This document shows, in pieces, positions 1-18,969 of a stretch of 21,669 bases of DNA; positions within the stretch are counted from its first letter, which is position 1; each line of letters opens with the position of its first letter. Under the pieces are notes generated by a model. It was given only the letters and a program-made list of their open reading frames with translations. It had not been told where the DNA came from and searched no databases. The stretch is taken from the NCBI GenBank assembly GCA_040905425.1, contig JBBDRO010000084.1, positions 1 to 21,669 of the forward strand, in the 5' to 3' direction. The stretch is from Gemmatimonadota bacterium (GTDB taxonomy: Bacteria > Gemmatimonadota > Gemmatimonadetes > Longimicrobiales > RSA9). A program made the position numbers and the translations under genes.

Positions 1-26
1 GGGGGGGGGTGGGGGGGGGGGGGGGG

Positions 27-191
27 GCGGCGCGGCCGGTGCACTTCTCGGAGACGGTGCACACGGCCGCCGACGCGCGCGCCATGTCCTTCGACTATCG
101 CCTGCGGCCGGGGGTGGCCACCTCCACGAACGCGCTGAAGCTCATGGCGCTGGTGGGGCTCGGACCGTCAGCGGCGGACGCGGATCAGTAG
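27..191 (+). CDS. C-terminal fragment of a MutS-related ATPase (MutS domain V family), 5'-truncated by the window edge
   Basis: Translation ..PVHFSETV..MSFDYRLRPGVATSTNALKLMALVGL matches the HF..FDYxLxxG..xNAxxL tail typical of short MutS-like proteins. Stop TAG at 189-191 overlaps the convergent HD-GYP stop. Bases 1-26 are nearly pure G and were excluded. Confidence 0.75.
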   Translation, partial: AARPVHFSETVHTAADARAMSFDYRLRPGVATSTNALKLMALVGLGPSAADADQ

Positions 192-922
192 CCCTCCGCC
201 TGCGCCTCCACCACCGCCGTGAGCAGGGTGGCGAAATCGGGATCGAACTCGAACCCGGCTCGCTGGCGGATGAAGTCCAGCACGATCTCCCGGGGCCACG
301 CGTCGCGGTAGGGGCGCGGCGTGCGCAGGGCGTGGTAGTTGTCACAGAGCTGCACCAGCCGGCTGACCGGATGCGGGGTGCGCGCGTAGGTCAGTTCGGG
401 ATAGCCGCTGCCATCCAGCTTCAGGTGGTGCTCGTAGGCCACCGTGGCGGCCAGGGAGAGGCGGCCGTCCGCCTCCAGCAGGATGCGGGCACCCTCCACC
501 GGATGCGTCTTGACCTGGGTGCGCTCGTCCTCCGTGAGGCGCGTGGTCTTGGTGAGCAGGCCCGCCGGGAGGCGCGCCATGCCGATGTCCATGAGCAGGC
601 CCGCCAGCCCCACCGCGCGCACGTCCGCCGGCTCGAAGCCCGCCTCCTCGGCCACGGCCATGGAGAGCATGGCCACGTCCAGGGCGTGGACGGCGCCGTA
701 GTCCATGGCGTCCTTCATGGCCAGCTGCGGCAGCTCCCCCCGCCCCGCCCGCCGCAGTCCCACGTAGAGGGCGTGCACCACGGCCTCCGCCTCGGTCACG
801 GGCAGCGGCTTGCCCGCGCGTACGTGGGCCAGCAGCCAGAGCAGGGCGTGGCGCTCTTCCACGTAGCGTTCGCGGTCCTCGTCGCGGCGTGGCGCGGTGT
901 CCGGCGGAACGGGTGTGTTCAT
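185..922 (-). CDS. HD-GYP domain protein with degenerate active site (245 aa)
   Basis: HPVEGA, YEHHLKLDGSGYP and RPYR are present. GLLMDIGM replaces GLLHDIGK and DNYHAL replaces DVYDAL. ATG overlaps the upstream stop (ATGA, 919-922) with GGAGGAGG just upstream. Colinear paralog of 6938..8110. Confidence 0.9.
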   Translation of the reverse strand: MNTPVPPDTAPRRDEDRERYVEERHALLWLLAHVRAGKPLPVTEAEAVVHALYVGLRRAGRGELPQLAMKDAMDYGAVHALDVAMLSMAVAEEAGFEPADVRAVGLAGLLMDIGMARLPAGLLTKTTRLTEDERTQVKTHPVEGARILLEADGRLSLAATVAYEHHLKLDGSGYPELTYARTPHPVSRLVQLCDNYHALRTPRPYRDAWPREIVLDFIRQRAGFEFDPDFATLLTAVVEAQAEGY

Positions 923-2490
923 GCCTCCTCCCCGGCGGGCTCCGTCCCGCTCGCGGCGCCCGCCACGTCGGCGTCCGCCGACTTACGCGCCTGCGCCAGC
1001 AGGGCCGCCGCGCGCTTGTCATGCTGCCACGAGCGCGCCAGTCCGCGCAGGGCCGCCAGCAACTCGGGAGACTTCTGCGCCAGTTTCGGCTTGCCCAGCA
1101 GCGTCTTTCCGCCGATGGCGTAGCGCAGCAGCGGCTCGAGCGCCAACGCCGAGTTGGTGCGGCCGAGCAGGTAGAGGGACTGCACGCGGTACTCCGGCGG
1201 GAAATCGGGCGCCACCGCCCGCCGGGCCAGCACCGGCACCGCCTGCTCCGGGAAGCCGCTCCTGGCCGCCTTCATGCCGGCGCGAAGGACGGTGGAATCC
1301 GTGTCCTGGAGCGCCAGCAGCATGCCTTTGGTGGCGCTCGCGCTGTCCTTCATCATGAGCAGGATGGCCTCACGTCGGACACGCGCATCCTCGTGGCTGG
1401 CATAGCGCTCCAGCGGCACCGCGGAGGTGTCCGCATCCAGCTGGCCCAGGAGGTGGAGCATGTTGCGTACGACGAACCAGCGCTCGTCGTCCAGCCGCTC
1501 CACGACCATGGGCCCCACGTCCACACCCAGGGTGGCCAGCCGGTCCAGCAGGCCGCGGCGGGTGGCGCGGGAGTGGGACTCGGTGAGTTCCTCCAGCAGG
1601 CGCTCGGCCGCCGTGCTGCCCATGTGCCGCAGCAGCACGTCGACCGCCTCGAAGTCCACCGGCTCGTTCTTGAGAAGGCCCCCCAGCCGGGTAGGCGTGG
1701 CCAGGTGCTCGGCGATCATGTCGGCCGACTGGCTGCCGCGCGGTGCGCGCTTCAGGTAGTCGAAGATGGCATCGTTGTCCTCACCCACCTGCGCCAGGGC
1801 GCCCCACACGGCGCTGCCGATGACCCCCGCCTCCAGGGCCATGGCCATTATCCGCTCCGGCTCCGGCTCCGCGCGCGAGCTGGTGCTCGCCGGGCCTTCC
1901 GCGGCGCCGAACATGTCGGCGAAGGTGCCCGCACCCGTCTGCAGCGTGCCTTCCGCCCAGCGCTCCACCGTATGGGCCGCCAGTTCCTGGAAGGATGCCA
2001 CCCCGGCCGGCCGGCTCGCCTCGGGCAGGCCGTCCGCTTCGGCGCCGAGCTTGGCAAGGAGGGCGGCAAGCGGCCGTGACAGTTTTTGCCTGTACGCCTC
2101 GCCCGCGCCGGCCAGCACGCCCAGGAGGGCCTGCGGGGGCAGCTGCTCGATGAGGGAGAGCGCCAGCGTGCGCCGGTGGTGGGCGTTGTGCTCGGCGGCC
2201 AGCGCGGCGCCCAGGGCACCCGATGCCACGGCGGTGAGAAACTCCGCCATGCGGGCACGCTGGGCGGGCGCGTCCGGCACATCGTCGGTGTAGGCGGCCA
2301 GCAGCGCCAGGAGGAGGGGGCCCACGGTACCGCGGTCGCCGCTCCGGCTGACGTGGTCCGCCAGGGAGGCAGGCGTGGCATCGCGGCCGGCGCCCACGGC
2401 GGTGCCGAGGGCGTCCCACGCCGCGGTAAGCGCTCTGTCGCCTCCGGCGGCCTCGTGCGGCGCCGGGGTGGTGTCGTTCAGGCCGTCCAT
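919..2490 (-). CDS. HEAT-repeat (alpha-solenoid) protein, short paralog (523 aa)
   Basis: PBS-lyase/HEAT-like motifs DDERWFVVRNML and HEDARVRREAI. Start placed at ATG 2490 (GGAGGG 5 nt upstream) rather than 2658, because a promoter-like element lies at 2592-2621. Aligns along its length with 8107..10176. Confidence 0.85.
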   Translation of the reverse strand: MDGLNDTTPAPHEAAGGDRALTAAWDALGTAVGAGRDATPASLADHVSRSGDRGTVGPLLLALLAAYTDDVPDAPAQRARMAEFLTAVASGALGAALAAEHNAHHRRTLALSLIEQLPPQALLGVLAGAGEAYRQKLSRPLAALLAKLGAEADGLPEASRPAGVASFQELAAHTVERWAEGTLQTGAGTFADMFGAAEGPASTSSRAEPEPERIMAMALEAGVIGSAVWGALAQVGEDNDAIFDYLKRAPRGSQSADMIAEHLATPTRLGGLLKNEPVDFEAVDVLLRHMGSTAAERLLEELTESHSRATRRGLLDRLATLGVDVGPMVVERLDDERWFVVRNMLHLLGQLDADTSAVPLERYASHEDARVRREAILLMMKDSASATKGMLLALQDTDSTVLRAGMKAARSGFPEQAVPVLARRAVAPDFPPEYRVQSLYLLGRTNSALALEPLLRYAIGGKTLLGKPKLAQKSPELLAALRGLARSWQHDKRAAALLAQARKSADADVAGAASGTEPAGEEA

Positions 2491-2591
2491 GGATTCCCTC
2501 CCGGTGATCGCCACCGGGTCGGCAGGTCGGGGGAATGTGTTCGTTGTGGTCGCAGCGCGGCGGAGGGTCGTCGCCGCGTCGCGAGGCCGGG

Positions 2592-2621
2592 AGAATACCA
2601 CGCCGGCCGGGGTGTGGTCAA
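2592..2621 (-). promoter_or_regulatory. Putative sigma70 promoter for the second HEAT/HD-GYP cassette
   Basis: Minus strand TTGACC (2621-2616), 18 nt spacer, TATTCT (2597-2592), preceded by an extended -10 TGn. Confidence 0.55.
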
Positions 2622-2646
2622 CGCGCAGGAACGACTGCATGCCGGA

Positions 2647-2686
2647 CGAGGTGGCCATCCACGGTTGGTCACCCCTACCGAGCGCG
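2647..2686. repeat. REP-like palindromic element, degenerate copy 1
   Basis: CGAGGTGGCCATCCACGGTTGGTCACCCCTACCGAGCGCG is 33/40 identical to 3080-3119. On the minus strand it reads GGTAG followed by an imperfect palindrome, as in GTAG-type REPs. Confidence 0.6.
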
Positions 2687-2713
2687 GGCGGACGCGGTTC
2701 ACGTCCGGTTGCG

Positions 2714-2740
2714 GGCGTGGCTGGCGTGGCTGGCGTGGCT
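2714..2740. repeat. 9-bp tandem repeat (GGCGTGGCT)x3
   Basis: Three exact copies read directly, plus a degenerate fourth. Confidence 0.9.
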
Positions 2741-2813
2741 GGGGTGGTGGGCGGGCGCGGTGCGTGGGGGCGTCGGTCAGGGGACCCGCCGGGGCCAGGT
2801 CAGCCAGCCATTC

Positions 2814-2910
2814 CGCACAACGGCGCTGCTCGCTGCGGCGGTTGCGCATTACGACCCGCCGTCGGAGTCGGCATGCACGACGGCCATCGCAACAGCATCA
2901 CCGTTGTGCG
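2814..2910. repeat. Long imperfect inverted repeat / hairpin (~97 nt)
   Basis: CGCACAACGGCGCTGCT (2814-2830) pairs 15/17 with AGCATCACCGTTGTGCG (2894-2910). Pairing continues inward with G-U pairs to GCAT..CGAC-CCG-loop-CGG..GTCG..ATGC. Confidence 0.65.
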
Positions 2911-3079
2911 TTCTTGCGTGTAGGGCGGGCCAAAGTGCACGAGCGCAGCCGCGGCGGGACCCGATGTGCATTCTTTCACCCGGACCGCTGGGAGCCTGGG
3001 GGCGCGCCCAGTTGGACCGACCCCGGGTGATGCACGCCGACGCCCGACACGGTGTCCGCGAGCATGTCTACCTACTGCG

Positions 3080-3109
3080 AGGGGTGGCCATCCGCGGATG
3101 GCCACCCCT
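3080..3109. repeat. Perfect 30-bp palindrome (REP-like element, copy 2)
   Basis: AGGGGTGGCCATCCGCGGATGGCCACCCCT is its own reverse complement. Confidence 0.9.
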
Positions 3110-3116
3110 TCCGAGT

Positions 3117-3201
3117 GCGTCCGTCCTCGACCCGCGCCCGTCCTCGACCCGCGTCCGTCCTCGACCCGCGCCCGTCCTCGACCCGCCCCCACCCTCGATC
3201 C
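3117..3201. repeat. 17-bp tandem repeat GCGYCCGTCCTCGACCC x4 plus a degenerate fifth copy
   Basis: Units at 3117, 3134, 3151 and 3168 alternate T/C at position 4 (a 34-bp higher-order unit x2). The fifth unit at 3185 is GCCCCCACCCTCGATCC. There are no spacers. Confidence 0.92.
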
Positions 3202-3254
3202 GTGCTCGCCAGCGTGGGCGTGTACGCCCGGCGCGAGGCGTCACACGCCCGGCG

Positions 3255-5015
3255 TCAGCGCAGCTGGATGCGCTGGCTCACCCGGCCCCCCTTCTGGCTG
3301 TCATAGGTGAAGGTCAGGTTGCCGGTGCCGCGCACCAGGTATTCCAACGTGCGCGTGGTCTGCCCGGGGTGCCCGTTGCGCACGATGATGCGCTCCAGTT
3401 CCTGCTGGTCGATGAGGTCGGTGATCCCCGGGTTGTGCTTGTTGTTCACCCACGCGGCCGAGATGATCTGAGCGCCGTCCAGGGTGATCAGGTCGGGGCG
3501 CACCACGCCGTTCTGCGCCGCCCGCGCCGTGATCGTGGGAATCACCCTGGGGTTGGTGATGTCCACCCAGACCCGCCAGACGTCCCCGTCGATGCGCTCC
3601 ACCCGCGTCTCACCCAGCTCCACGCGGGGCATCTGGTCGGCATGGTAGAGCGTGAACGCCATGTTGCGGTGCGAGAGCTCCTCGTTCATGAAGCGCGGCG
3701 GGATGCGGCCGCGCAGCTTCTTCCACCCGCCGAGCTGGACCGTACCGTACTCCGGGTGCTCGAAGTCCGCCCAGTCCACGAACTGGTCACCGAATTCCAG
3801 GTAGTCGTCGAACCAGTAGGAGGCCCCCTGTCCGGAGATGGGGCTGTTGGGATTCTGCTGCTGCTCCTTCAGGTCCGGGCTGTTGAAGTACTGCCCGCCG
3901 TTCCACAGCTCGTTGGAGAAGGAGACAATGCCCAGGCCGTCGTTGGTCCAGTCGGTGAAGCCACCATGGACCGTGTAGAGGCCGCTCCAGATGACGATGT
4001 AGTCGTAGTAGGGCAGTATGCGCTCCCCCTGCTCGCCCAGCTCGTCGTACACCTGAATGTCGGCGCGCGGATACTCGCCCTGCCACTCGGCGCCCGGACC
4101 GCGCAGGATCATGCCGCCGCTGTTGTGATAGCTCTGCACGCCGCCGATGTTCGGATGCGCCATCAGGAAATCGTTGACCGCGCGGGCTTCGGGGAGCTGG
4201 AACGGGTAGTCGTTGGCCCCGCCCTGGATGTACTGCGGCTGCCAGTCCGAGCCCCAGTTGCGGTTGCCGTCGTAGCTGCCGGGAGGATCCTCGTTGACCC
4301 TGCCGTCGCCGTCATTGTCGATCCCCTCGGAGCCCAGCATGATCCAGTCGCCCGTCTCGCCGAAGGGCACCTGCTCCATGACGCGTGGGTCGGCGCGGCT
4401 GATCCGGTGCGTGCCCTGACCGGGCACGTACTTGCGGATCTGCTCGATGTTGCCGTTGCCGTTCAGATCATCGGGGCCGTCCTCCTCGTACAGCCCGTCG
4501 TTGTCGTCATCCTTGGGCACGTGGCCGGTGCGCGAGCCCGAGCCGGAGCCGTGCAGGAAGTAGTCGCGCCCATCGGGATTGACGGTGGGCACCAGATAGA
4601 ACACCCGCTCGTTCACCAACCGGGTGATCTCGTCGATGCGGCCGTAGTTCTCCATGAGGTACCAGGCGGTGTAGAGGATCACCTCCGCCCCCTGGATCTC
4701 GTTGCCGTGCACGTTGGCCTCGATGTACATGGCCGCCTTGCTTTCCGGCGGGCCCGTTTCCGGGTTGTTGATGGTCATGACCACCAGATCGCGGCCGTCG
4801 CTGCTCTCGCCGAGCTTCTCCAGCGTGGTCAGCCCCGGCCAGGCGCGCTCGATGCGCTCCAGGTCGGAGATGAGCTCGGCGTTGTCATGCCAGCGGTTGA
4901 AGTCGATCTGCACGGTGTGCTGCGGGTCCGACCCCTGCGCCGCCGTCTCCGCCGGCGCCGCGAGCATCAGCGCCAGGGCGGCTACGGCCGGGGCGAGCTT
5001 CATGAGCGCCTTCAC
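3255..5015 (-). CDS. Secreted M14-family zinc carboxypeptidase, predicted active
   Basis: HGNE zinc motif (4698-4709), VPTVNPDG, NRNW, third ligand QSYH, catalytic Glu in FSNELW, DxDxDG-type acidic loops and a signal peptide ending TAA|Q. GTG 5015 has AAGGAGG 5 nt upstream; alternative starts are 5051, 5042 and 5003. Confidence 0.9.
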   Translation of the reverse strand: MKALMKLAPAVAALALMLAAPAETAAQGSDPQHTVQIDFNRWHDNAELISDLERIERAWPGLTTLEKLGESSDGRDLVVMTINNPETGPPESKAAMYIEANVHGNEIQGAEVILYTAWYLMENYGRIDEITRLVNERVFYLVPTVNPDGRDYFLHGSGSGSRTGHVPKDDDNDGLYEEDGPDDLNGNGNIEQIRKYVPGQGTHRISRADPRVMEQVPFGETGDWIMLGSEGIDNDGDGRVNEDPPGSYDGNRNWGSDWQPQYIQGGANDYPFQLPEARAVNDFLMAHPNIGGVQSYHNSGGMILRGPGAEWQGEYPRADIQVYDELGEQGERILPYYDYIVIWSGLYTVHGGFTDWTNDGLGIVSFSNELWNGGQYFNSPDLKEQQQNPNSPISGQGASYWFDDYLEFGDQFVDWADFEHPEYGTVQLGGWKKLRGRIPPRFMNEELSHRNMAFTLYHADQMPRVELGETRVERIDGDVWRVWVDITNPRVIPTITARAAQNGVVRPDLITLDGAQIISAAWVNNKHNPGITDLIDQQELERIIVRNGHPGQTTRTLEYLVRGTGNLTFTYDSQKGGRVSQRIQLR

Positions 5016-5047
5016 GAGCGCCTCCTTCGTTGGATTGCGCATGGTAT

Positions 5048-6865
5048 TCACTGGAGTACGATGGTGGCGTTGGCCAGACCGGCTTTCTGCGAGCGCACCC
5101 TGAGCTCGATGCGGTCGCCCGCGTTACCGCGGATGAGCCAGGTGTAGCTCTGCCGCCGACCGGAGCCGTCGAGCGCCTGGATGAAGTTGGTCTTGGCGTC
5201 CCCTGTGATGATGGCGTCCGGGTCCACACCGAGCTGCACCATGGTGGGCCGCACCGCACGGGCCACCACGCCGTGCGCCGTGGACGTGGGCAGGTAGCCC
5301 GCGTTCTCCACCTCGGCGGTGATACGGAAGATGCCGCCCCCGTGGTTGGTCACCTGCGTATCGGCCACCCGCACCTCGGGGAAGAGGGAGCCGAGCCAAA
5401 CCGCGAAGCCGGCATGGGACCGGCCCAGCGCCTCCAGGTCGGCCGCCGGCGGATTGGACAGGACGTACGGCTGGAAGCCGCCGATCTCTACCTGGCCGAG
5501 GGTGGGATGCTGGAACGGCGTCCAGTCCACGAAGCCGTCGATGCCGCGCGCCTCGAGCCACGCCAGCAGCGCCGCGTCCCCGTCACCCTCGCCCACCTCC
5601 TCCCCGTCCATCACACCGAAGCCGGGCGTGGTGAAGGACGGTACGCCGAACTGATAGTAACCGTAGTCGGCAAAGGCGCCGGCCGGCGCCCGCGTCACCA
5701 GGACCCGGTCGATGCCGGTGAGCTCGCGGTAGCTGTCACTGGCGCGGCGGAAGTACTCCTGGTCGGCCTCGTTCACGGTGGTGGCGGGCTGGCGGCCACC
5801 GCCGGGCCGGCCGCCACTCTGCCCGGCGGCCGAGCCGCCGCCGCCGAAGCCTCCGAAGCCGCCGCCACCCGTGGAGAAGACGCCCACCTCGTCCAGCCCG
5901 TCCAGACTTTCCACCGCGAAGTCCGCCAGGTCCACGGTGGCCGGAGCGGCCAGCTCACCGCGCTGGTTCGGCGGGCGCACCAGATTGTCACTCTCTCCGA
6001 AGCTCAGGATGAGCGCCACGTTCTCCAGCCCCAGCACGTAATCCATGAGCGCCCGGGACTCCCGCTCGCTCACCATGTGCGGGCCGGCGTCGGGCTGGTA
6101 ATAGGGGTACGCGTGCTGGAAGTTGCGGTTGATGTCCACACCGCCGGGGCCGTCCTCGTTGTAGAAGCCATCCCCGTCATTGTCCAACCCCTCCGTGTAG
6201 AGCGTCCAGCCGCCGGCCTCCCCCCGTGCGGCGTCGGCGCGCACCATGAGGCGCGCCTCCGCGCTGTCCGGGCGGAACGGCCCGCGCGGGTCGGCCACAC
6301 GCATGAGCGTGATGAGGCCGTCACCATTCAGGTCATCCGGGCCGTCCTCGTCCACGCGCACGTCATTGTCGGCATCGCGCGGGTTGGCGTTGCCGCGCAG
6401 CTCCGCGCGCGTGGCGGCGAACATGCGCTCGGCGCCGTCCGGGTTCACGCGCGGAACCACGTAGATCACATGGTTGTCCAGCCGATCGCGGACGTCGGCG
6501 TCGGTGGCGTAGCTGCCGAGCAGGCTGGCCACCGTGCGGAGCGCCAGCTCGCTGCCCACCACCTGGTTGCCCTCCAGGTTGGCGGTGATCAGCAGGGCCG
6601 GCCGCTCCGCCAGCGGCGTGCCGGAGCGATTGGCCAGCTCGACCGCCCAGATGTCACGATTCTCGAGCGTGCGTCCGATGCTCGTGAGGCGCGCCAGCTC
6701 CGGATGGGCGTTCACCAGCCCCCGCAGCTCCCGCGTGAGGGCGTCGTAATCGTGGTAGCCCGAGAGCTCCTGCGCGGCCGCCGGAGCGGGCCGCGTGAAG
6801 GCCGCTGCCAGGCATGCCAGTGCCAGGGCGAGCGCCCATCGGGAGCGTTTCATGGGGTGTGTCAC
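5048..6865 (-). CDS. Secreted M14-family carboxypeptidase homolog lacking zinc ligands (pseudopeptidase)
   Basis: Same architecture as the neighbour (IGRTLENRDI, VPRVNPDG, DINRNF, DGFVDWTPFQHPTLGQVEIGG). HxxE is EGNQ (6563-6574), the third His position is SFG and the catalytic Glu position is SFTTP. Signal peptide AAA|Q; AGGAGG lies upstream of GTG 6865. Confidence 0.88.
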   Translation of the reverse strand: MTHPMKRSRWALALALACLAAAFTRPAPAAAQELSGYHDYDALTRELRGLVNAHPELARLTSIGRTLENRDIWAVELANRSGTPLAERPALLITANLEGNQVVGSELALRTVASLLGSYATDADVRDRLDNHVIYVVPRVNPDGAERMFAATRAELRGNANPRDADNDVRVDEDGPDDLNGDGLITLMRVADPRGPFRPDSAEARLMVRADAARGEAGGWTLYTEGLDNDGDGFYNEDGPGGVDINRNFQHAYPYYQPDAGPHMVSERESRALMDYVLGLENVALILSFGESDNLVRPPNQRGELAAPATVDLADFAVESLDGLDEVGVFSTGGGGFGGFGGGGSAAGQSGGRPGGGRQPATTVNEADQEYFRRASDSYRELTGIDRVLVTRAPAGAFADYGYYQFGVPSFTTPGFGVMDGEEVGEGDGDAALLAWLEARGIDGFVDWTPFQHPTLGQVEIGGFQPYVLSNPPAADLEALGRSHAGFAVWLGSLFPEVRVADTQVTNHGGGIFRITAEVENAGYLPTSTAHGVVARAVRPTMVQLGVDPDAIITGDAKTNFIQALDGSGRRQSYTWLIRGNAGDRIELRVRSQKAGLANATIVLQ

Positions 6866-6937
6866 GGATCCTCCTGCGTGGGTCGATGCGGCCCTCGTCG
6901 GCCGCGGGGGTGTGTACTCGATATCGCTCGGTGGTGC

Positions 6938-8110
6938 TCAGGCGGCGGGGGGCTCACCCCAGTCATCGGCCAGGGCGCGGCGCTCCTCACGCAGGCGCAT
7001 CATCTCGGTGAAATCCCGCGCCAGGCGCGGATCGAACTCCGAGTTCGCCTTCTCCATGATGTAGTTGAGCACCTTTTCCGCTGGCCACGCCGCGCGGTAG
7101 GGGCGGTTGGTGCGGAGCGCGTCGTAGACGTCGCAGATGTGCACCATCTTGCTGGCCTCGTGGCATTTGCGGGCAAAGTTGAGCTGCGGGTACCCGCCAC
7201 CGTCCAGCATGATGTGGTGTTCGTAGGCCACCACCGCGGCCAGGTCCAGGTGCTCCTCGGTCTTGATGATGATGCGCGCGCCCTCCACCGGGTGCCGGTT
7301 GATCATGGTACGCTCTTCCGGCGTGAGCTTGCCCGGCTTGGTCAGCACGTCGATGGGGATGTTGACCTTGCCGATGTCGTGCAGCAGCCCTGCGACGCCG
7401 AAGGCGCGCACGTCCCGCGCGTCCAGGTTGACGTGCTCCGCCAGGCCCATGGCCAGCACGGCCACGTTCAGTGAGTGGGTGGTGGTGTACTCGTCGAAAT
7501 TGCGCAGCTTGAGGAGGGGCATGACCAGCTGCTGGTCACCGTGCATGGCCAGCGAGAGCGAGCGCACCACCGCCTCAGCCTCGGCCAGCGGCAGTCGGCG
7601 CTCCTGTTGCACCCGCTCGTGCAGCCAGCGAATGGTCTGCGCCTCGTCGCTGAGGGAGAGGTTGGTGGTGGCGGGAGGCGGCGGCTCCTGCTCGTCCCCC
7701 CCACCTTCCCCCTTCATGCCCACCGCGCCGAAGCGGATGCGCGTGTTGCGCATCTGCCGCGCGCCCGCCGTGCCCAGCACCGCCATGGTGACGCGGGCGA
7801 GCACCTCCTCGAGGAATTCTTCGAAATCGTCCACCTGCACGCCGGGCTCGAACTCCAGCCGCTGGATACCCGCGCCCGCCAGTCGCGGCCCCCACTCCCA
7901 CGACTTCAGGTCGCGCACCGGACGGGTGCCGCACACCACTTCGTCGCCCAGGAAGGTGAAGAGCGGGCGCGGCTCCTCCTCCTGCAGCCGGAGCAGCGCT
8001 TCGTACGCGCCCCGCACCGCCCGTTCGCGCGCCGCGTGCCCCTCCTTGTAGAGGGACATGGTGGCAATGGAGCGCCCGAGGGTGGTGAGAAAACTGGCCG
8101 CCAGGCTCAT
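6938..8110 (-). CDS. HD-GYP cyclic-dinucleotide phosphodiesterase with an uncharacterised N-terminal domain (390 aa)
   Basis: Complete motif set: DEYTTTHSLNV, LLHDIGK, HPVEGA, EHHIMLDGGGYP, DVYDALRTNRPYR. ATGA overlap with the upstream HEAT gene. Confidence 0.93.
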   Translation of the reverse strand: MSLAASFLTTLGRSIATMSLYKEGHAARERAVRGAYEALLRLQEEEPRPLFTFLGDEVVCGTRPVRDLKSWEWGPRLAGAGIQRLEFEPGVQVDDFEEFLEEVLARVTMAVLGTAGARQMRNTRIRFGAVGMKGEGGGDEQEPPPPATTNLSLSDEAQTIRWLHERVQQERRLPLAEAEAVVRSLSLAMHGDQQLVMPLLKLRNFDEYTTTHSLNVAVLAMGLAEHVNLDARDVRAFGVAGLLHDIGKVNIPIDVLTKPGKLTPEERTMINRHPVEGARIIIKTEEHLDLAAVVAYEHHIMLDGGGYPQLNFARKCHEASKMVHICDVYDALRTNRPYRAAWPAEKVLNYIMEKANSEFDPRLARDFTEMMRLREERRALADDWGEPPAA

Positions 8111-10176
8111 GCGCCGCTCCCGCCCGCCGCGTTGCGGATCTGCCCATCACTGGACTTGGCCGCCGCGTCCAGGAAGGGCTTGATCTGCGAGTGGCGGCGC
8201 CAGTCGGCGGCGCCCACCTCCAGCGCGGCCAGCAGGGTGGCGGACTTGGCGGCCAGGCGTGGCCGTCCCAGCAGCGACCTGCCACCGGACAGCAGCCGCT
8301 GCAGCATCACCGGCACCTGGGGCGTGCGCTGGCCGCGCAGCAGGCGCGTCAGTCCCGCGCGCAGGTCATCCTCCAGCGCCTCGTCCTCCAGGCGGGCGCA
8401 CAGGGGCGCCACGACCGCGCGCGGCGGCTGCGCCGCCGCGCCCTCGGCCACCGCGAGCCGCAGCACGCGCTCGTCCCCCTCCTGCATGGCGCGCACGAAG
8501 GTGCGTTCGCGCAGGTCCGGCACCCGGAAGCACAGGGCAATGGCTTCGCGGCGCACCTGCGTCTGGGGATGCTTCAGGTATTTCTCCGGGTCGAAGCCGG
8601 GCGCCACGGTCTTCATCTCGTTCATGAGGGCCAACATGTTGCGCGTGACGTACCAGCGCGAATCGTCGGCCCGACGGGCCAGCATGGGCAGCAGGGTGGG
8701 CCCCGACTTTGCCAGCCGCTGGAAGATGGCCATGCGAAAGGTCCGGTTCTCCGACTCCGCCAGCCGATCCAGCAGCAGCGGCGCGGCTTCCTCGGGCTCC
8801 ATGCGGTCCAGGACCTTCTCCAGGGCAATGAAGTCCGCGTCGTCCAGCTCGAGCAGCGTGCGCAGCGTGTCCGGGCGGGCCAGCCGGCCCCAGAGGGCGG
8901 TCGAGGCGTCGCTGGGCGGCGCGTCCAGCAGGGCGTGCACCACCGGCATCAGCTGCCCCTCCGCCAGCAGGCTCTCCACCGCCCGCCAGAACGGTATGCC
9001 CACGGCGTCCACCTCCAACCCCATCTGCAGCAGCCGCAGCGGCTCGGGCAGATGCCGGCCTCCCGCGCGGGCCAGATCACGCTCCGAGGTGCGGGAGATG
9101 GCGTCCAGGGCGCGCGTGTAGGCGTCCGGATTGGGGTCCTCCAGGTGCCAGTCGGAGATGAGCTGCCGGATCTGGTCGCGCAGCTCCGCGTCGGCCGTCT
9201 TCGCCGTGGGCCCGCTGCCGTCGCTCGCGGCGCCCAGCTTGGCCAGCATGCGCACCATGGACTGGGAGATGGTCTGGCCGGAGGCGTGGGCCGCGGCGCG
9301 CACCACCTCCAGCACCGCCTCGATGTTCAGCCCCTCGGTGGCGTTGAGCAGGAACTCCTGCCGCTGCTCCATACTGCCGCCCATCTCCACGAGGCGCAGC
9401 AGCGTCTTGTCATCCAGGCTGGCCAGCATGCGGGACATGCGGTTGCGGACCGCCTGCGTGGCGGGGTCGGCGTCCTCCTTAAGCTCCTCGGCCAGCTGCA
9501 GCAGGTAGCCCACGATGACCTGGTCGTAGGCCTCGGTCTCCTCGTGCTCGTTGATGGCCTCCGCCACGGCACCGGCATCCGTGGCGGCCAGGTCCTCGTC
9601 CGGACCGGTGGCGGTGGCCGCGCGCGCCAGCCCCATCCACAGCAGCGCGGATTGCTGGTGCTCGGTGCCGGGCGCGAACGCCTCCCCCGTGCCGTCGCCG
9701 TCCCCGCCGCCCACCAGTTCCAGCTTCTCGTACGTCATGGGGAAGGCGCGGATCCCCTGCCAGCGACCCAGGCGCGCCGGGTCGGCGCCCGCGGGCAGCT
9801 CCTCCACCGCGTCGGCTTCGCGGGCCAGAGAGTGGAGGAACTCCTCGAGCTGCCGGCGGTCCACGCCCCGGAGGAACATGATGGCGCCGATCTGGTGGCG
9901 GTGCAGGCGCTCCGCCAGCGCCTTGAGCACCGGTTGTTCGGGGTCCGTGGCCAGTCCCTCGATGACCAGTTGCCGGCTGGCCACGCCCACCGAGAGCTGG
10001 CTGCGCTCCTCCAGCAGATTGTCCAGACGCGTCATCACGCCCGCCGAGGCCGTGGCCATCGAGGGATGGCCCGGTGGGTACATGGCGCTCCGGCTGAGGG
10101 CAATGGCCAGTTCCAGCAGGAAATCGACCAGATCCTGGGGGAGCGCGGCCTGCTCGGGGGACCCCTGCTTCGTCAC
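8107..10176 (-). CDS. HEAT-repeat protein, long paralog, with an N-terminal YPPGHP domain
   Basis: N-terminal MYPPGHP motif; C-terminal HEAT-like DDSRWYVTRNML and HPQTQVRREAI. The ORF is open to TTG 10212; GTG 10176 is preferred if the promoter at 10212-10240 is real. Start uncertain. Confidence 0.85.
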   Translation of the reverse strand: MTKQGSPEQAALPQDLVDFLLELAIALSRSAMYPPGHPSMATASAGVMTRLDNLLEERSQLSVGVASRQLVIEGLATDPEQPVLKALAERLHRHQIGAIMFLRGVDRRQLEEFLHSLAREADAVEELPAGADPARLGRWQGIRAFPMTYEKLELVGGGDGDGTGEAFAPGTEHQQSALLWMGLARAATATGPDEDLAATDAGAVAEAINEHEETEAYDQVIVGYLLQLAEELKEDADPATQAVRNRMSRMLASLDDKTLLRLVEMGGSMEQRQEFLLNATEGLNIEAVLEVVRAAAHASGQTISQSMVRMLAKLGAASDGSGPTAKTADAELRDQIRQLISDWHLEDPNPDAYTRALDAISRTSERDLARAGGRHLPEPLRLLQMGLEVDAVGIPFWRAVESLLAEGQLMPVVHALLDAPPSDASTALWGRLARPDTLRTLLELDDADFIALEKVLDRMEPEEAAPLLLDRLAESENRTFRMAIFQRLAKSGPTLLPMLARRADDSRWYVTRNMLALMNEMKTVAPGFDPEKYLKHPQTQVRREAIALCFRVPDLRERTFVRAMQEGDERVLRLAVAEGAAAQPPRAVVAPLCARLEDEALEDDLRAGLTRLLRGQRTPQVPVMLQRLLSGGRSLLGRPRLAAKSATLLAALEVGAADWRRHSQIKPFLDAAAKSSDGQIRNAAGGSGA

Positions 10177-10211
10177 GGGCCTCGGCGATGGGTGCGGGTT
10201 GGGGACACTCA

Positions 10212-10240
10212 AGACTGCGCGGGGCGCCCGTCATCGTCAA
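10212..10240 (-). promoter_or_regulatory. Possible internal sigma70 promoter for the long HEAT/HD-GYP cassette
   Basis: Minus strand TTGACG (10240-10235), 17 nt spacer, CAGTCT (10217-10212). The -10 match is weak. Confidence 0.3.
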
Positions 10241-10365: not shown

Positions 10366-11403
10366 TCATCGTTCTGCTCCGGTGGGGGCGGAGCCGAGGG
10401 GGGGCGAATCCTCCCGCGGTCGGCTGCGCCGTTCGGCGGACACGTTCACGGGCCACAGGGAGACCGGCTCCTCCAGCTCCGCGGCCAGACCCAGGAGCAA
10501 CGGGTGCAGGGAGTCGAAGCGGTCCGCGGGGTCCGGCGCCAGGCAGGTCAAGACCGTGCGGGCCAGGGAGGCGGAGAGCCCGGGCGCGTAGCGCCCCGGT
10601 TCCGGCGGCGGCGCCGAGCCGAGCTGCGGGTACTGGCGCTCCTGCCCCTGGCGTGGCTCAGCCTCCGTGTAGACATCCTCATAGGGCCAGCGCCCGGTGA
10701 GCAGTTCGTAGAGCAGGGCGCCCAGCCCGTAGATGTCGGCGGCGGGCCCCAGCGGCTCCCCACGGACGTGCTCGGGTGCCATGTACGGGCCCGTCCCCAA
10801 CCGCTCCTCGGGGGGCGCCTCCTCCATGCGCCGGGCGGCGTCCATGTCGATGAGCACGGGGACGCCGTCGCGCAGCAGGAGATTGGCGGGCTTCAGGTCC
10901 AGGTGCAGCCAGCCCTCGCGGTGCAGGTGGTAGAGGGCGGCGCCCAGGTGGATGGCGGCGCGCACGGCGTCACTCGGCTCCAGGCGGCGCGCAGGTCGTT
11001 CCTCGAGGACATCGAAGAGAGAGGGCCCCTCCAGGTACTCCATGAGCAGGAAGGGCAGGCCGTCGTGCTCACCCTCGCCGTAGCTCCGCACCAGATTGGG
11101 ATGCCGGACGGCACCGAGGATGCGGCCCTCCCGGCGCAGCGTTGCCGCGGCGTCCGCGTTACTCCGCTCGGTGGGCGCCAGGATCTTGCACGTGAAGGCG
11201 CACCACTCGCGGGCACTCCATACCTGGTAGAGGTGCCCCAGGCGCCCCACTTCCAGATGACCGATCACCGCCAGATCCCCGGCGATGCGGTCACCCAGGG
11301 CGTAGGGATAGGACGCGTTCCGCCGGCGCCGCCGCTCGGGTTCCAGGCGGTCCAGGAGCCCGAGCCGCCGTGGGGCCGTGCCGCGCCCCGCGCTCACCGC
11401 CAT
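10366..11403 (-). CDS. Soluble Hanks-type serine/threonine protein kinase (345 aa)
   Basis: FTCKIL (Lys), REGRIL (alphaC Glu), HPNLV, MEYLEG, HLDLKPANLL, IDMD (DFG position), GTGPYMAPE, DIYGLG and DPADRF. ATG 11403 lies 1 nt after the receiver gene's stop. No transmembrane segment is visible. Confidence 0.9.
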   Translation of the reverse strand: MAVSAGRGTAPRRLGLLDRLEPERRRRRNASYPYALGDRIAGDLAVIGHLEVGRLGHLYQVWSAREWCAFTCKILAPTERSNADAAATLRREGRILGAVRHPNLVRSYGEGEHDGLPFLLMEYLEGPSLFDVLEERPARRLEPSDAVRAAIHLGAALYHLHREGWLHLDLKPANLLLRDGVPVLIDMDAARRMEEAPPEERLGTGPYMAPEHVRGEPLGPAADIYGLGALLYELLTGRWPYEDVYTEAEPRQGQERQYPQLGSAPPPEPGRYAPGLSASLARTVLTCLAPDPADRFDSLHPLLLGLAAELEEPVSLWPVNVSAERRSRPREDSPPLGSAPTGAER

Positions 11404-11404
11404 G

Positions 11405-11842
11405 TCACGTCGAGGAGCCGGACAGCCGGGCGCTGTCGTGAGCGGCCCGGACGCCGCCGTCGTACGCGGCCGCGGCGGCGGCCAGGAGCACTTCGAGGCG
11501 CCGTCGGATCTCCGGCAGCGGCGCGGGCTTGGCCAGGAAGTCGTCACAGCACCCGGAGGCGCGCACGCGGCCTTCCTGGCCTGGCGCGGCGTGCGCGGTG
11601 AGCACCAGCACGGGCAGGTGCTCTGGGGCGCGCTCGGCCTTGATGGCCAGCGCGGTTGCAACGCCGTCCATGCCGGGCAGCTCCACGTCCACCAGCACCA
11701 GATCCGGCCGTTCGGCGCGCGCCAGCGCCGTGCCCTGCTCCCCGTTCACCGCCGTCACCACCCGGTAGCTGTCCTGCAGCAGCTCGCGCAGGAGCTGCAG
11801 GAGGTCCAGGTTGTCCTCGATGATGAGGAGGGTGGCGGTCAT
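11405..11842 (-). CDS. Single-domain response regulator (receiver domain, CheY/DivK-like)
   Basis: LLIIEDN, phospho-acceptor in DLVLVDVELPGMDG, VLTAH and FLAKP. No output domain. Alternative start at 11857. Confidence 0.9.
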   Translation of the reverse strand: MTATLLIIEDNLDLLQLLRELLQDSYRVVTAVNGEQGTALARAERPDLVLVDVELPGMDGVATALAIKAERAPEHLPVLVLTAHAAPGQEGRVRASGCCDDFLAKPAPLPEIRRRLEVLLAAAAAAYDGGVRAAHDSARLSGSST

Positions 11843-16017: not shown

Positions 16018-16041
16018 CGGGTGGGGAGCGGAGAGGAGCCC

Positions 16042-17424
16042 ATGCCCCGGAATCTGATCGCCGCCGCCGCCGCGGCCGCGCTGCTGGGCAACGCCGGCGC
16101 CGGCGCGGCGCAGGACGCCGCCATGGAAATCAGCATACCCTACCGCGCCTTCACCCTGGACAACGGGCTGCGCGTGGTGGTGCACGAGGACCACTCCGTG
16201 CCGGTGGTGGCCGTGAACCTCTGGTACCACGTGGGCTCGGCCAACGAGCGGCCCGGGAGGACCGGCTTCGCGCACCTCTTCGAGCACCTCATGTTCGAGG
16301 GCTCGGAGCACGTGCCCGAGGGCCGCTTCGACGAGCGCCTGGAGGCCGTGGGCGCCATCAACAACGGCTCCACGGACACGGACCGCACCAACTACTGGGA
16401 GACGCTGCCCCCCAACGGCCTGGAGTTGGCGCTCTGGCTGGAGGCGGACCGCATGGGCTGGCTGGAGGCGGCCATCACCGAGCAGCAGCTCGAGGCGCAG
16501 CGCGGCGTGGTCAAGAACGAGCGCCGGCAGAGCTACGAGAACCGCCCCTACGGTCTGGCCTACGAGACGCTCTCCGCCGCGCTCTACCCTCCCGCGCACC
16601 CCTACCACTGGCCCACCATCGGTTCCATGGCGGATCTGGACGCCGCCACGCTCGCGGACGTGGTGGCCTTCTTCCGCACCTACTACGCGCCCAACAACGC
16701 CTCCCTGGCCATTGCGGGGGACGTGGACTTCGGGGAGGTGCGGGCGCTGGTGCAGAAGTACTTTGCGGAGATTCCCGCCGGTCCCGCCGTGCCGCCGGTG
16801 CAGGCGTCCGATCCCACCCTGGCCGCCAATGTCCGGCGAGTACTGGAGGATGACGTCCAGCTCCCCCGCCTGTATGTCTCCTGGCACACCCCGGCGCTCT
16901 TTGGCCCGGAGGACGCGGCGCTGGACGTGGCCGCCAGCGTCCTGGCCGACGGCAAGACCAGCCGGCTCTACCGCACCCTGGTCTACGACCGGCAGGTGGC
17001 GCAGGACGTGGCCGCCTACCAGTCCAGCGCGGCGCTGGGCTCCGACTTCACGGTGGTGGTGACGGCCCGTCCGGAGGTGGGCCTGGCGGCGCTGGAGGCG
17101 GAGGTGCGGGCCGAGCTGGGGCGCATGGCGGGGGAGGGGATCGCCACCCGCGAACTGGAGCGCGCTCGCAACGCGCGCGAGACCGCCTTCGTGGACGGCC
17201 TGCAGACCGTCGGCGGCTTCGGCGGCAAGGCGGACCGGCTGAACCAGTACCTCTTCTACACCGGCGAGCCGGACTGGGCGGGCCAGGACCTGGCCCGCTA
17301 CCGCACGCTCACGCCCGCCGACGTGCAGGCGGCCGTGCGGCGCTGGTTGGTGGAGCCCCACAGCGTGGTGCTCTCCGTGGTGCCGCGGGGCCGCACCGAC
17401 CTGGCGTCGGGGGAGGGGCGTTGA
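16042..17424 (+). CDS. M16B zinc peptidase, catalytic subunit, with signal peptide
   Basis: FTLDNGLRV, GFAHLFEHLMFEGS (HxxEH), DRTNY, VVKNER and YYAPNNA. N-terminus MPRNLIAAAAAAALL..GAA|Q; GAGGAG RBS. Confidence 0.93.
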   Translation: MPRNLIAAAAAAALLGNAGAGAAQDAAMEISIPYRAFTLDNGLRVVVHEDHSVPVVAVNLWYHVGSANERPGRTGFAHLFEHLMFEGSEHVPEGRFDERLEAVGAINNGSTDTDRTNYWETLPPNGLELALWLEADRMGWLEAAITEQQLEAQRGVVKNERRQSYENRPYGLAYETLSAALYPPAHPYHWPTIGSMADLDAATLADVVAFFRTYYAPNNASLAIAGDVDFGEVRALVQKYFAEIPAGPAVPPVQASDPTLAANVRRVLEDDVQLPRLYVSWHTPALFGPEDAALDVAASVLADGKTSRLYRTLVYDRQVAQDVAAYQSSAALGSDFTVVVTARPEVGLAALEAEVRAELGRMAGEGIATRELERARNARETAFVDGLQTVGGFGGKADRLNQYLFYTGEPDWAGQDLARYRTLTPADVQAAVRRWLVEPHSVVLSVVPRGRTDLASGEGR

Positions 17425-18923
17425 GTAAGCGACGGCTCACCCTTCACCTCACCGGTGCCGCGCTTACCCTCTTCGCGGGAGCGTGCGCCGGTGGCGCCGG
17501 CCCCCGACCCTCTCCGCCCGAACTCCCCACGGACATGCCCGAGCATCCCCCGAGCCCCATTGCCCTCGATCGTACCATGGCCCCGGACCCGGGGCCGGCG
17601 CCCACCTTCACGGCGCCCGCCGTGCGGCGCTTCACGCTGGCCAACGAACTGCAGGTGATGGTGGTGGAGCAGCACGAGCTGCCGGTGGTGGACGTGCAGC
17701 TCGTGGTGCGCGCGGGGGCGGCCGCGGACCTCCCGCCGGCGGCGGGTCGGGCCGCGCTCATGGCCGACCTGCTGGACGAGGGGACGCGCACCATGAGCGC
17801 CCTGGAGCTGGCGGACGCGGTGGACTTCCTGGGCGCGTCGCTGCAGGTGTACCCGGGCTGGGACGCCACCACGGTGGCGCTGCACGTGCTGAAGCCGCAT
17901 CTGGAGGCGGCGCTGCTGCTGCTCGGCCAGGTAGCCACCGAGCCGGCGTTCCCCGCGGAGGAATTCCAGCGCAAGCGGGAGCAGCGCCTGAACGCCATCC
18001 GCCAGGAGCTGGATGACCCGCGGGCGCTGGCCAACACGGCCTTCGCGGCCGTGGTCTACGGGGACGCGCACCCCTACGGCGCACCGCTGGGCGGCACGGC
18101 CTCCAGCGTGGCGGCGCTCACGCTGGACGGCGTGCGGGCGTTCTACCGGGAGCGCTTCCATCCGGAGAACGCCACGCTGGTGGTGGCCGGAGACGTCATG
18201 GCCGCCGAGATTACCCCGCTGCTGGAGCGCGCGCTCGGCGGCTGGGAGCGGGCGGCCGCCCCCGCCACGGAGCTGCCGGCAGCGCCGCGGCCGGCCCCCA
18301 CCGCCATCCACATCGTGGACCGGCCGGGCGCCCCCCAGTCGGAGCTGCGGGTGGGGCTGGTGGGCGTGCCGCGGACCACGGAGGACTACTACGCCCTGGA
18401 GGTCATGAACACCGTCCTGGGCGGCGCCTTCACCTCCCGGCTGAACATGCGCCTGCGTGAGGAGAAGGGCTGGACCTACGGCGCCGGCTCGGGCTTCGGC
18501 TACCGGCTGGGACCGGGGCCCTTCCAGGTGGCCACGGCGGTCTTTACGGAAGTCACGGACAGCACCCTCACGGAGATCGTGCGGGAGCTACGGCGCATCC
18601 GGGACGAGCTGGTGCCCGAGGAGGAGCTGGCGCGCGCCAGGAACTACCTGGCGCTCGGCTACCCCCGCTCCTTCGAGACCACGGGCGGTCTGGCCGGCAA
18701 CATGGCCCAGCTGGCCCTGTACGGGCTGCCCGCGGACTACCATGATCGCTATGTGGAGCGCATCCTGGCCGTCAGCGCGGAAGACGTGTGGCGCGTGGCC
18801 AACGCCTACCTGGACCCCGGCCGCAGCGCCATCGTGGTGGCCGGGGACCGGGCGCGCATCGAGGCGGGCCTGCGCGCACTGCGCCTGGGGCCGGTCTACG
18901 TGCGTGAGCCCGCGGCGCCCTGA
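17421..18923 (+). CDS. M16B peptidase non-catalytic subunit, probable lipoprotein
   Basis: No HxxEH (ALMADLLDEG). Carries the R/Y pair in SRLNMRLREEKGWTYG. N-terminal KRR, hydrophobic stretch and AGA-C22, then a Pro-rich tether. TTG start overlaps the upstream TGA. Confidence 0.9.
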   Translation: MSKRRLTLHLTGAALTLFAGACAGGAGPRPSPPELPTDMPEHPPSPIALDRTMAPDPGPAPTFTAPAVRRFTLANELQVMVVEQHELPVVDVQLVVRAGAAADLPPAAGRAALMADLLDEGTRTMSALELADAVDFLGASLQVYPGWDATTVALHVLKPHLEAALLLLGQVATEPAFPAEEFQRKREQRLNAIRQELDDPRALANTAFAAVVYGDAHPYGAPLGGTASSVAALTLDGVRAFYRERFHPENATLVVAGDVMAAEITPLLERALGGWERAAAPATELPAAPRPAPTAIHIVDRPGAPQSELRVGLVGVPRTTEDYYALEVMNTVLGGAFTSRLNMRLREEKGWTYGAGSGFGYRLGPGPFQVATAVFTEVTDSTLTEIVRELRRIRDELVPEEELARARNYLALGYPRSFETTGGLAGNMAQLALYGLPADYHDRYVERILAVSAEDVWRVANAYLDPGRSAIVVAGDRARIEAGLRALRLGPVYVREPAAP

Positions 18924-18969
18924 GACGAGTCGAGATGCCAGCCAATGCACGCGTGAGGAGGCGCCGAGC

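Follow-up and report, generated by a model that had tools for sequence, protein, structure and literature searches.

Matched absence of a shared N-terminal domain from both partners of a short HEAT-repeat/HD-GYP cassette in Gemmatimonadota

HD-GYP proteins form the less-studied class of cyclic di-GMP (c-di-GMP) phosphodiesterases. The 21.7-kb contig JBBDRO010000084.1 of a Gemmatimonadota bacterium (GenBank assembly GCA_040905425.1), the whole of which (21,669 nucleotides, 72% G+C) is called the window here, carries two cassettes in which a HEAT-repeat gene is followed on the same strand by an HD-GYP gene, with overlapping stop and start codons. In the long cassette (6938..10212, minus strand) both proteins begin with a homologous N-terminal domain (N-domain); in the short cassette (185..2490, minus strand) neither does. 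How did two neighbouring genes come to lack the same domain, and what does the short pair do without it? One Gemmatimonadota lineage is found to lack the N-domain of about 135 residues in both genes, and the pair has since been kept together in it under constraint. On sequence comparison, and with moderate confidence, the short cassette is read as a neofunctionalised, probably non-hydrolytic c-di-GMP module that acts with its HEAT partner independently of the N-domain, both N-domains having been lost after duplication. The short HD-GYP protein would, in this reading, probably sense the messenger c-di-GMP rather than degrade it.

As a sequence-only reading of the window had proposed, the short HEAT-repeat gene (919..2490, minus strand; 523 residues) and the short HD-GYP gene (185..922, minus strand; 245 residues) are colinear paralogues of the long HEAT gene (8107..10212, minus strand; 701 residues) and the long HD-GYP gene (6938..8110, minus strand; 390 residues). 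Each pair shares an ATGA start/stop overlap, at 919..922 and 8107..8110 on the minus strand, which in the short pair suggests translational coupling. BLASTP aligns the two HEAT proteins at 31% identity over 477 residues (E 2e-41; long residues 230-699) and the two HD-GYP proteins at 45% identity over 222 residues (E 1e-67; long residues 155-376). In a profile-profile alignment with hhalign, residues 19-521 of the short HEAT protein pair with residues 185/186-699 of the long one (probability 100%, E 1.6e-85), while the first aligned residue of the short HD-GYP protein, residue 22, corresponds to long residue 155. The short proteins begin 18 (HEAT) and about 21 (HD-GYP) residues before their aligned cores, about 20 residues ahead of where N-domain and linker end in the long proteins, and the N-domain is absent from both. 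The earlier statement that the short genes begin where the shared domain ends is borne out; ALTAAWDALG pairs with SALLWMGLA, the short start lying 18 residues earlier, and all the sequence strings that had been quoted are present in the translations.

The short proteins are recognisable members of their families. The HEAT partner matches Pfam HEAT_2 (PF13646) over residues 352-433 with 33.7 bits against a cut-off of 27.7, and the HD-GYP-type protein has an HD-superfamily core (HD_5, PF13487, E 8.2e-21; PF01966, E 4.1e-12; PDB 4mcw, E 2.8e-22). None of the four long and short proteins matches DUF3391 (PF11871) at E<=0.1.

That the long pair shares an N-domain, also claimed from the sequence, proves correct. 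The domain spans approximately residues 27-170 of the long HEAT protein (window 9703-10134, from profile alignments) and residues 1-135 of the long HD-GYP protein (window 7706-8110), and alignments of 18 and 15 sequences give a profile-profile match over 132 columns (hhalign probability 95.3%, E 2.2e-8); BLASTP alone returns E 0.32. When hidden Markov models (HMMs) of the N-domain were run against the 4.1-Mb genome translated in six frames, with a threshold of E<=10, three places matched: the long cassette itself (E 1e-77 and 1.5e-70), its two genes in a match of one against the other, and, with a weak match, a third HD-GYP on contig C100. No remnant of the domain was found with these HMMs, at the same threshold, in any frame of window 1..3300, which disposes of the possibility, raised with the original claim, that remnants upstream would betray a recent truncation. 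The 764-bp intergenic stretch 5' of the short cassette (2491..3254) likewise gave no match in searches for the N-domain, for GGDEF or, at E<=0.1, for Rfam families.

What kind of domain is missing? The N-domain of the HD-GYP protein, folded alone with 63 sequences, gives a confident model (predicted local distance difference test, pLDDT, 89.7; predicted template modelling score 0.84) with the element order helix, helix, two strands, helix, strand, long helix, strand. No clear solved relative was found with Foldseek in the PDB (best E 0.68), nor with VIA-align against 48,161 chains (best Z 4.3, none >=5), and the domain has no match in Pfam, NCBIfam or PDB sequences, the PDB profile matches being at chance level (E 0.006-0.01); this lack of a solved relative does not show a new fold. 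The model of the whole long HD-GYP protein is of moderate quality (pLDDT 64) and matched solved HD-GYPs. The N-domain profile matches 702 of 1.84 billion representative sequences at E<=0.001, and in the best 150 of these 702 it lies mostly at the N-terminus of proteins of about 380-430 residues, or in fragments.

Are the short genes real genes with genuine starts? Open frames, good ribosome-binding sites and a promoter-like element had been ascribed to them, and all three are present. A Shine-Dalgarno-like GGGAGGG (2496..2502, minus strand) stands 6 nt ahead of the HEAT start (ATG at 2490), and the HD-GYP start (ATG at 922) is preceded by GGAGGAGG. Window 1..3400 contains a single sigma-70-like site, where 0.0 were expected from 50 shuffles: a consensus match at 2621..2592 on the minus strand, TTGACC-18-TATTCT with a TG extension. 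The short HEAT start codon is kept in orthologues as an aligned Met, and public gene calls hold an identical 523-residue protein, named 'hypothetical protein' like its relatives. A longer open reading frame (ORF), 919..2658, was considered as the HEAT gene and rejected, because the promoter-like site lies inside it, orthologues start at the aligned Met and the public call is the 523-residue protein. The G+C content at third codon positions (GC3) of the short genes is 0.88-0.91, typical for coding sequence here. Invariant columns number 37 in the alignment of 11 short HEATs and 26 in that of 13 short HD-GYPs, and the ATGA overlap recurs in 5 of 7 orthologous short pairs and, from coordinates, in loci L036, L038 and L040.

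Does the N-domain ever occur in one partner only? A protein search of 41 related genomes gave matches in 19, and in the loci examined each long HEAT gene whose downstream region falls within the locus is followed by a long HD-GYP gene and each short HEAT gene by a short one (seven short loci). A scan of one genome per species covered the best 80 of 595 confirmed relatives, classified with full-length profiles, and a metagenome scan the best 80 of 533 relatives. The genome survey comprises 113 HEAT-bearing rows (111 loci), which yield 94 cassettes, 90 of them unique. Two loci, L002 and L025, belong to a genome flagged as unpublished, and no count hinges on them: L025 has the same core sequences as L034 of the public collection, and L002 is one among 73 long/long cassettes. 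The rows left out are 11 without an HD-GYP gene in the locus, five of these being of the distant L026-L030 type, together with HEAT genes split by frameshifts (L064, L080, L081 and L096) and genes cut by locus ends. The 90 unique cassettes divide into 73 long/long, 13 short/short and four with a long HD-GYP gene and a HEAT gene cut by the contig start; none is mixed. The 80 metagenome loci include 35 long/long, eight long/long with the 3' end of the HD-GYP gene cut, and eight short/short; a further 20 have a HEAT gene cut by the contig start, followed by a short HD-GYP gene in 6 and a long one in 14, and in six the region downstream of the HEAT gene (3 long, 2 short, 1 cut) is off the contig end. 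Two apparent mixed cassettes were rejected: L064, seemingly short/long, has a long HEAT gene broken into three frames, and L177, seemingly long/short, has frameshifts in both genes. In the metagenome locus L148 the HEAT gene matches from profile position 106 only and the HD-GYP gene is broken off after about 39 N-domain residues. In this survey of co-presence and co-absence, which had been proposed as a check, no well-assembled cassette with the N-domain in one partner only was found among the best 80 of 595 genome and the best 80 of 533 metagenome relatives, against 73 long/long in genomes and at least 43 in metagenomes.

The number of events behind this pattern is small. The short HD-GYPs form one clade (FastTree on the core, 91 rows; starred support of 99), the short HEATs lie on one side of one branch (core tree, 90 rows; starred support of 99), and a concatenated IQ-TREE analysis of 13 short and 26 long pairs over 658 columns recovers the short/long split with starred support of 100. 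All three trees are unrooted, and each shows one short/long split. Since all short pairs belong to one clade, the matched absence is one lineage's history and not repeated independent evidence; the short cassettes record two deletions, one per gene, fixed together in one lineage. The proposal that matched absence supports a domain that works only as a pair accordingly stands in part: it gains from the lack of mixed cassettes and loses from the single historical event behind the short clade. Both N-domains may instead have served the control of catalysis and have become dispensable together, a rival reading raised by the loss of HD-GYP catalytic residues in the same short lineage.

The direction of change is indicated mainly by distribution. 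Loss after duplication is favoured mainly because of where the two forms occur: the long form was matched by profile search in 287 of the 401 Gemmatimonadota genomes sampled, a tally that takes in four flagged genomes, and also in metagenome-assembled genomes (MAGs) of Acidobacteriota, while short forms were found, among the best 80 of 595 relatives, only in Gemmatimonadota-labelled MAGs, with titles mostly of Longimicrobiales. One MAG has the HEAT and HD-GYP genes of a long cassette followed directly, in tandem, by those of a short one (L038, 1..5258), an order that fits tandem duplication; here the same order is interrupted by two peptidase genes. By the long-HEAT profile, genomes G006 (99% complete) and G013 (85% complete) hold a short cassette only, so the short pair has no need of a long pair in the same genome. 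Branches of the short clade are longer than those of the long clade in both gene trees.

The active site is where the two forms differ most instructively. Residues were mapped to the c-di-GMP phosphodiesterase PmGH through the 4mcw alignment and tallied over 77 long and 13 short unique HD-GYPs. In the long copies, including that of the window with its full catalytic set, all listed positions (H, HD, K, H, HH, GYP, D, D, R, R) are kept in 77 of 77, except the D183 equivalent (76 of 77). In the short copies H189, H250, H276, H277, GYP, D305 and both basic positions (the R314 and K317 columns) are kept in 13 of 13, D222 in 12 and H221 in 11. The K225 equivalent is Lys in none of the 13 (Met in 12, Gln in one), and the equivalents of D183 and D308 are kept in 2 and 1 respectively, the latter being His in 8. 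The short HD-GYP of the window has Met at H221, K225 and D183 and His at D308, the Asp of DAL. It reads LLMDIGM, with MD for HD, and so lacks an intact HD dyad as well as the catalytic helper residues K225, D183 and D308; its GYP/HHE motif, EHHLKLDGSGYP, is intact, as it is in all 13 short copies. In PmGH, the H221A, K225A, D183A and D308A substitutions each abolish activity (PMC4159591). The uniform Lys-to-Met change, the kept nucleotide-contacting residues and the longer yet constrained branches together argue for functional change rather than decay. The most divergent short HD-GYP, that of L018/L041 in genome G006, where the long-HEAT profile found no long cassette, has AD for HD, Gln for the Lys and Thr for the DAL Asp, and lies downstream of a VWA-domain gene.

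How might such a module work? In the proposed scheme a two-gene operon with its own promoter-like site would encode a HEAT-repeat scaffold and an HD-GYP-type protein, both descended from a duplication of the long cassette about 4.4 kb upstream on the same strand. The N-domains would have been lost after this duplication rather than gained by the long pair. With K225 and mostly D183 and D308 missing, and here the His of HD too, the short HD-GYP would no longer be an ordinary c-di-GMP phosphodiesterase. Absence of the catalytic Lys and Asp, combined with retention of GYP, most metal ligands and two basic nucleotide-contacting positions, makes a sensor or regulator the most likely role, in which the protein would bind c-di-GMP or a related nucleotide, or dock on a GGDEF protein. 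It would form a complex with its HEAT partner through contacts outside the N-domain, the second, putative link of the sequence-only reading, as the conserved adjacency and the start/stop overlap suggest. In the long pair the N-domains most likely bind each other, coupling the scaffold to the control of catalysis, and both would be dispensable once catalysis had been given up. HD-GYPs that do not hydrolyse are reported to bind c-di-GMP or to act via protein contacts, as does DvhD (PMC13090378); HnoD, ECA3548 and RpfG are further examples (10.1101/2021.11.05.467447).

Genomic context in relatives links the short cassette to c-di-GMP synthesis genes of the GGDEF type. A GGDEF domain was identified by Pfam in 6 of 19 flanking ORFs scanned, in a gene of about 320 residues that precedes the short HEAT gene on its strand. 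This gene is directly upstream in five of the Pfam-positive loci, and in L023/L037 an ORF without a Pfam match lies between; in L040 the GGDEF stop codon abuts the HEAT start. With an HMM of the GGDEF gene it was found upstream in 7 of the 12 unique genome short loci whose upstream sequence extends for 1.2 kb or more (GGDEF-bearing loci L021, L024, L036, L039, L040, L019 and L023/L037) and in seven metagenome short loci (L117, L118, L121-L124 and L127). The arrangement suggests a three-gene unit in a subclade. A bolder version of the favoured reading, put forward tentatively from the same sequence comparisons, would make the short pair a dedicated non-hydrolysing c-di-GMP receptor complex, a pseudo-HD-GYP on a HEAT scaffold, co-transcribed in many relatives with its own GGDEF cyclase as a three-protein local feedback unit; the double deletion would then mean that the N-domains are an obligate heterodimer which exists only to gate catalysis.

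Several observations weigh against the reading of a neofunctionalised sensor derived by loss. Next to the window's own cassette no GGDEF gene or remnant was found (tblastn with the GGDEF neighbours, best E 0.58), and the best GGDEF counterpart in this genome is on contig C38, between efp and uvrA. An HD-GYP tree rooted with four other HD-GYPs of the same genome places the short clade among Longimicrobiales-type long sequences, a set that includes the window's long copy, with support of 85-90 only, unstarred; the approximately unbiased (AU) test leaves monophyly of the long form standing (p 0.298), so that the tree does not settle the direction. Nei-Gojobori ratios of non-synonymous to synonymous change (dN/dS) are 0.19-0.92, all below 1, and are not quantitative because synonymous sites are saturated (proportion of synonymous differences, pS, 0.44-0.66; GC3 about 0.9). 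On the 2168-nt metagenome contig L115, the 700 nt downstream of a short-type HEAT gene contain no HD-GYP gene. The HD dyad is kept by 11 of 13 short HD-GYPs and most metal ligands by all, which leaves room for an altered hydrolase, and Galperin and Chou considered one missing His in RpfG possibly non-essential (10.1101/2021.11.05.467447). On L115 itself, an unrelated small ORF and sequence of lower G+C come after the HEAT gene, and a rearrangement or a chimeric assembly may be involved.

The alternative that survives best, although it is judged unlikely, is that the short HD-GYP has remained active as a phosphodiesterase, either through a modified site or on another substrate such as cyclic GMP-AMP (cGAMP) or pGpG, and that the cassette matches the long one in function but is unregulated and constitutively active. 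It draws on the four His ligands, D305, GYP and both Arg positions kept in 13 of 13, with HD in 11 of 13, and on the existence of cGAMP-specific HD-GYPs, one of which (5z7c) is among the sequence matches. The E185A and D305A variants of PmGH, moreover, retain some activity (PMC4159591). The same paper, however, has K225A, D183A and D308A each abolishing activity, and it is exactly these residues that are missing from the short lineage, the Lys from all 13 copies and the Asp equivalents of D183 and D308 from 11 and 12 of the 13, where long copies keep K225, D183 and D308 in 77, 76 and 77 of 77. The window's copy in addition has Met for a metal-binding His.

It is improbable, more so than an active enzyme, that the short form is ancestral, its lack of the N-domain primitive, and that the long cassette gained the domain in both genes. 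Unrooted trees with a single split would accommodate such a history, as would the AU result for long-form monophyly. Against it stand the distribution of the forms given above and the nesting of the short clade inside long sequences in the rooted HD-GYP tree. An N-domain-like segment (E 1.2e-4) also stands at the start of the HEAT protein in a more distant cassette, that of contig C100, and the catalytic residues of the short copies are derived relative both to the canonical set of the long copies and to solved HD-GYPs such as PmGH.

That the cassette here is a decaying pseudo-operon without function is very unlikely: the extra change of HD to MD, at a His kept by 11 of 13, and the longer branches of the short clade would suit decay, but the open frames, strong ribosome-binding sites, promoter-like site, coding-type GC3 and invariant columns all oppose it, and a uniform Lys-to-Met change (12 of 13) fits new constraint better than drift. 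Simple decay had been doubted from the sequence already, and that doubt is now backed by the lack of an upstream remnant, the conserved start and the recurrence of the short pair in 13 unique genome and eight metagenome cassettes, other genera included.

The favoured reading, a probable sensor module without N-domains, can be set beside known systems. The long cassette resembles the short pair in gene order, in the start/stop overlap and in having a homologous solenoid and core; unlike it, the short cassette has no N-domains, has lost the catalytic Lys and two Asp throughout its lineage, has longer branches and often has a GGDEF gene upstream. PmGH (4MCW), a c-di-GMP phosphodiesterase of GAF-HD-GYP architecture, is the solved protein that matches the short HD-GYP best in sequence, and the two have GYP, most metal ligands and the R314/K317 positions in common; unlike PmGH, the short HD-GYP has no sensor domain, with H221, K225 and D183 replaced by Met and D308 by His. 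DvhD (PDB 9RBZ), a sequence match to the short HD-GYP at E 3.1e-12, and HnoD and ECA3548 similarly combine an HD-GYP fold and altered active-site motifs with non-catalytic action (PMC13090378; 10.1101/2021.11.05.467447). Those three are fused to PAS, REC or PilZ domains, whereas the short HD-GYP is bare and has a separately encoded HEAT partner; its HHE and GYP, in contrast to theirs, are intact, the changes lying at K, D183 and D308 and here also at the H of HD. The Bd1817 family (DUF3391-HD-GYP, PDB 3TM8) is an HD-GYP with an uncharacterised N-terminal domain and a fold match to the whole long HD-GYP model (E 1.8e-5); the N-domain model of the long pair alone, however, matches 3TM8 at Z 3.6 only, tied with unrelated chains.

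As far as was found in titles and abstracts of the literature on HD-GYP with HEAT-repeat or operon and on Gemmatimonadetes, an HD-GYP protein with a separate HEAT-repeat partner subunit has not been described so far, and the long HEAT/HD-GYP cassette with its shared N-domain is apparently not in print. Within one genome, scaffold and core can here be compared between a form that has the paired N-domain and the catalytic Lys and Asp and a form that lacks them. Two questions become testable in this way, namely whether the N-domains pair the two proteins and whether HEAT and HD-GYP make contact independently of them. The short cassettes would also extend the range of HD-GYP sensors by a probably non-catalytic lineage with links to GGDEF genes.

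The same genome has a third cassette, more distantly related, on contig C100 (L031; G000:C100:29000-41000, 3688..7013, minus strand). It encodes a HEAT-type protein of about 567 residues and an HD-GYP protein of 479 residues with a GTGA overlap, and interrupts a trp gene cluster, with trpB on one side and trpA on the other. Both proteins have N-domain-like starts, the homology being marginal (E 1.2e-4 for the HEAT partner; E 0.023). The cassette was considered as an outgroup for the HEAT tree and rejected, as the long-HEAT profile missed it.

The order of genes in the rest of the window was taken from codon-position G+C and Pfam. Upstream of the long cassette lies a Ser/Thr kinase gene (10366..11661, minus strand). 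Between the long and short cassettes are two tandem M14 carboxypeptidase-like genes with a 4-nt overlap (5048..6865 and 3255..5051, minus strand; together 3255..6865). A perfect 12-13-bp inverted repeat, GGGGTGGCCATCC...GGATGGCCACCCC, follows the second peptidase gene at about 3081..3108 and has no T-run, and the intergenic stretch also contains tandem repeats, a 17-mer in 5.1 copies and a 9/18-mer array (window 3117..3202 and 2711..2773). The contig opens with a long homopolymer run in window 1..60, of G on the plus strand, which is probably an artefact of assembly or of read ends. At its other end, four M16 peptidase-like genes stand in a row on the plus strand (16021..21668).

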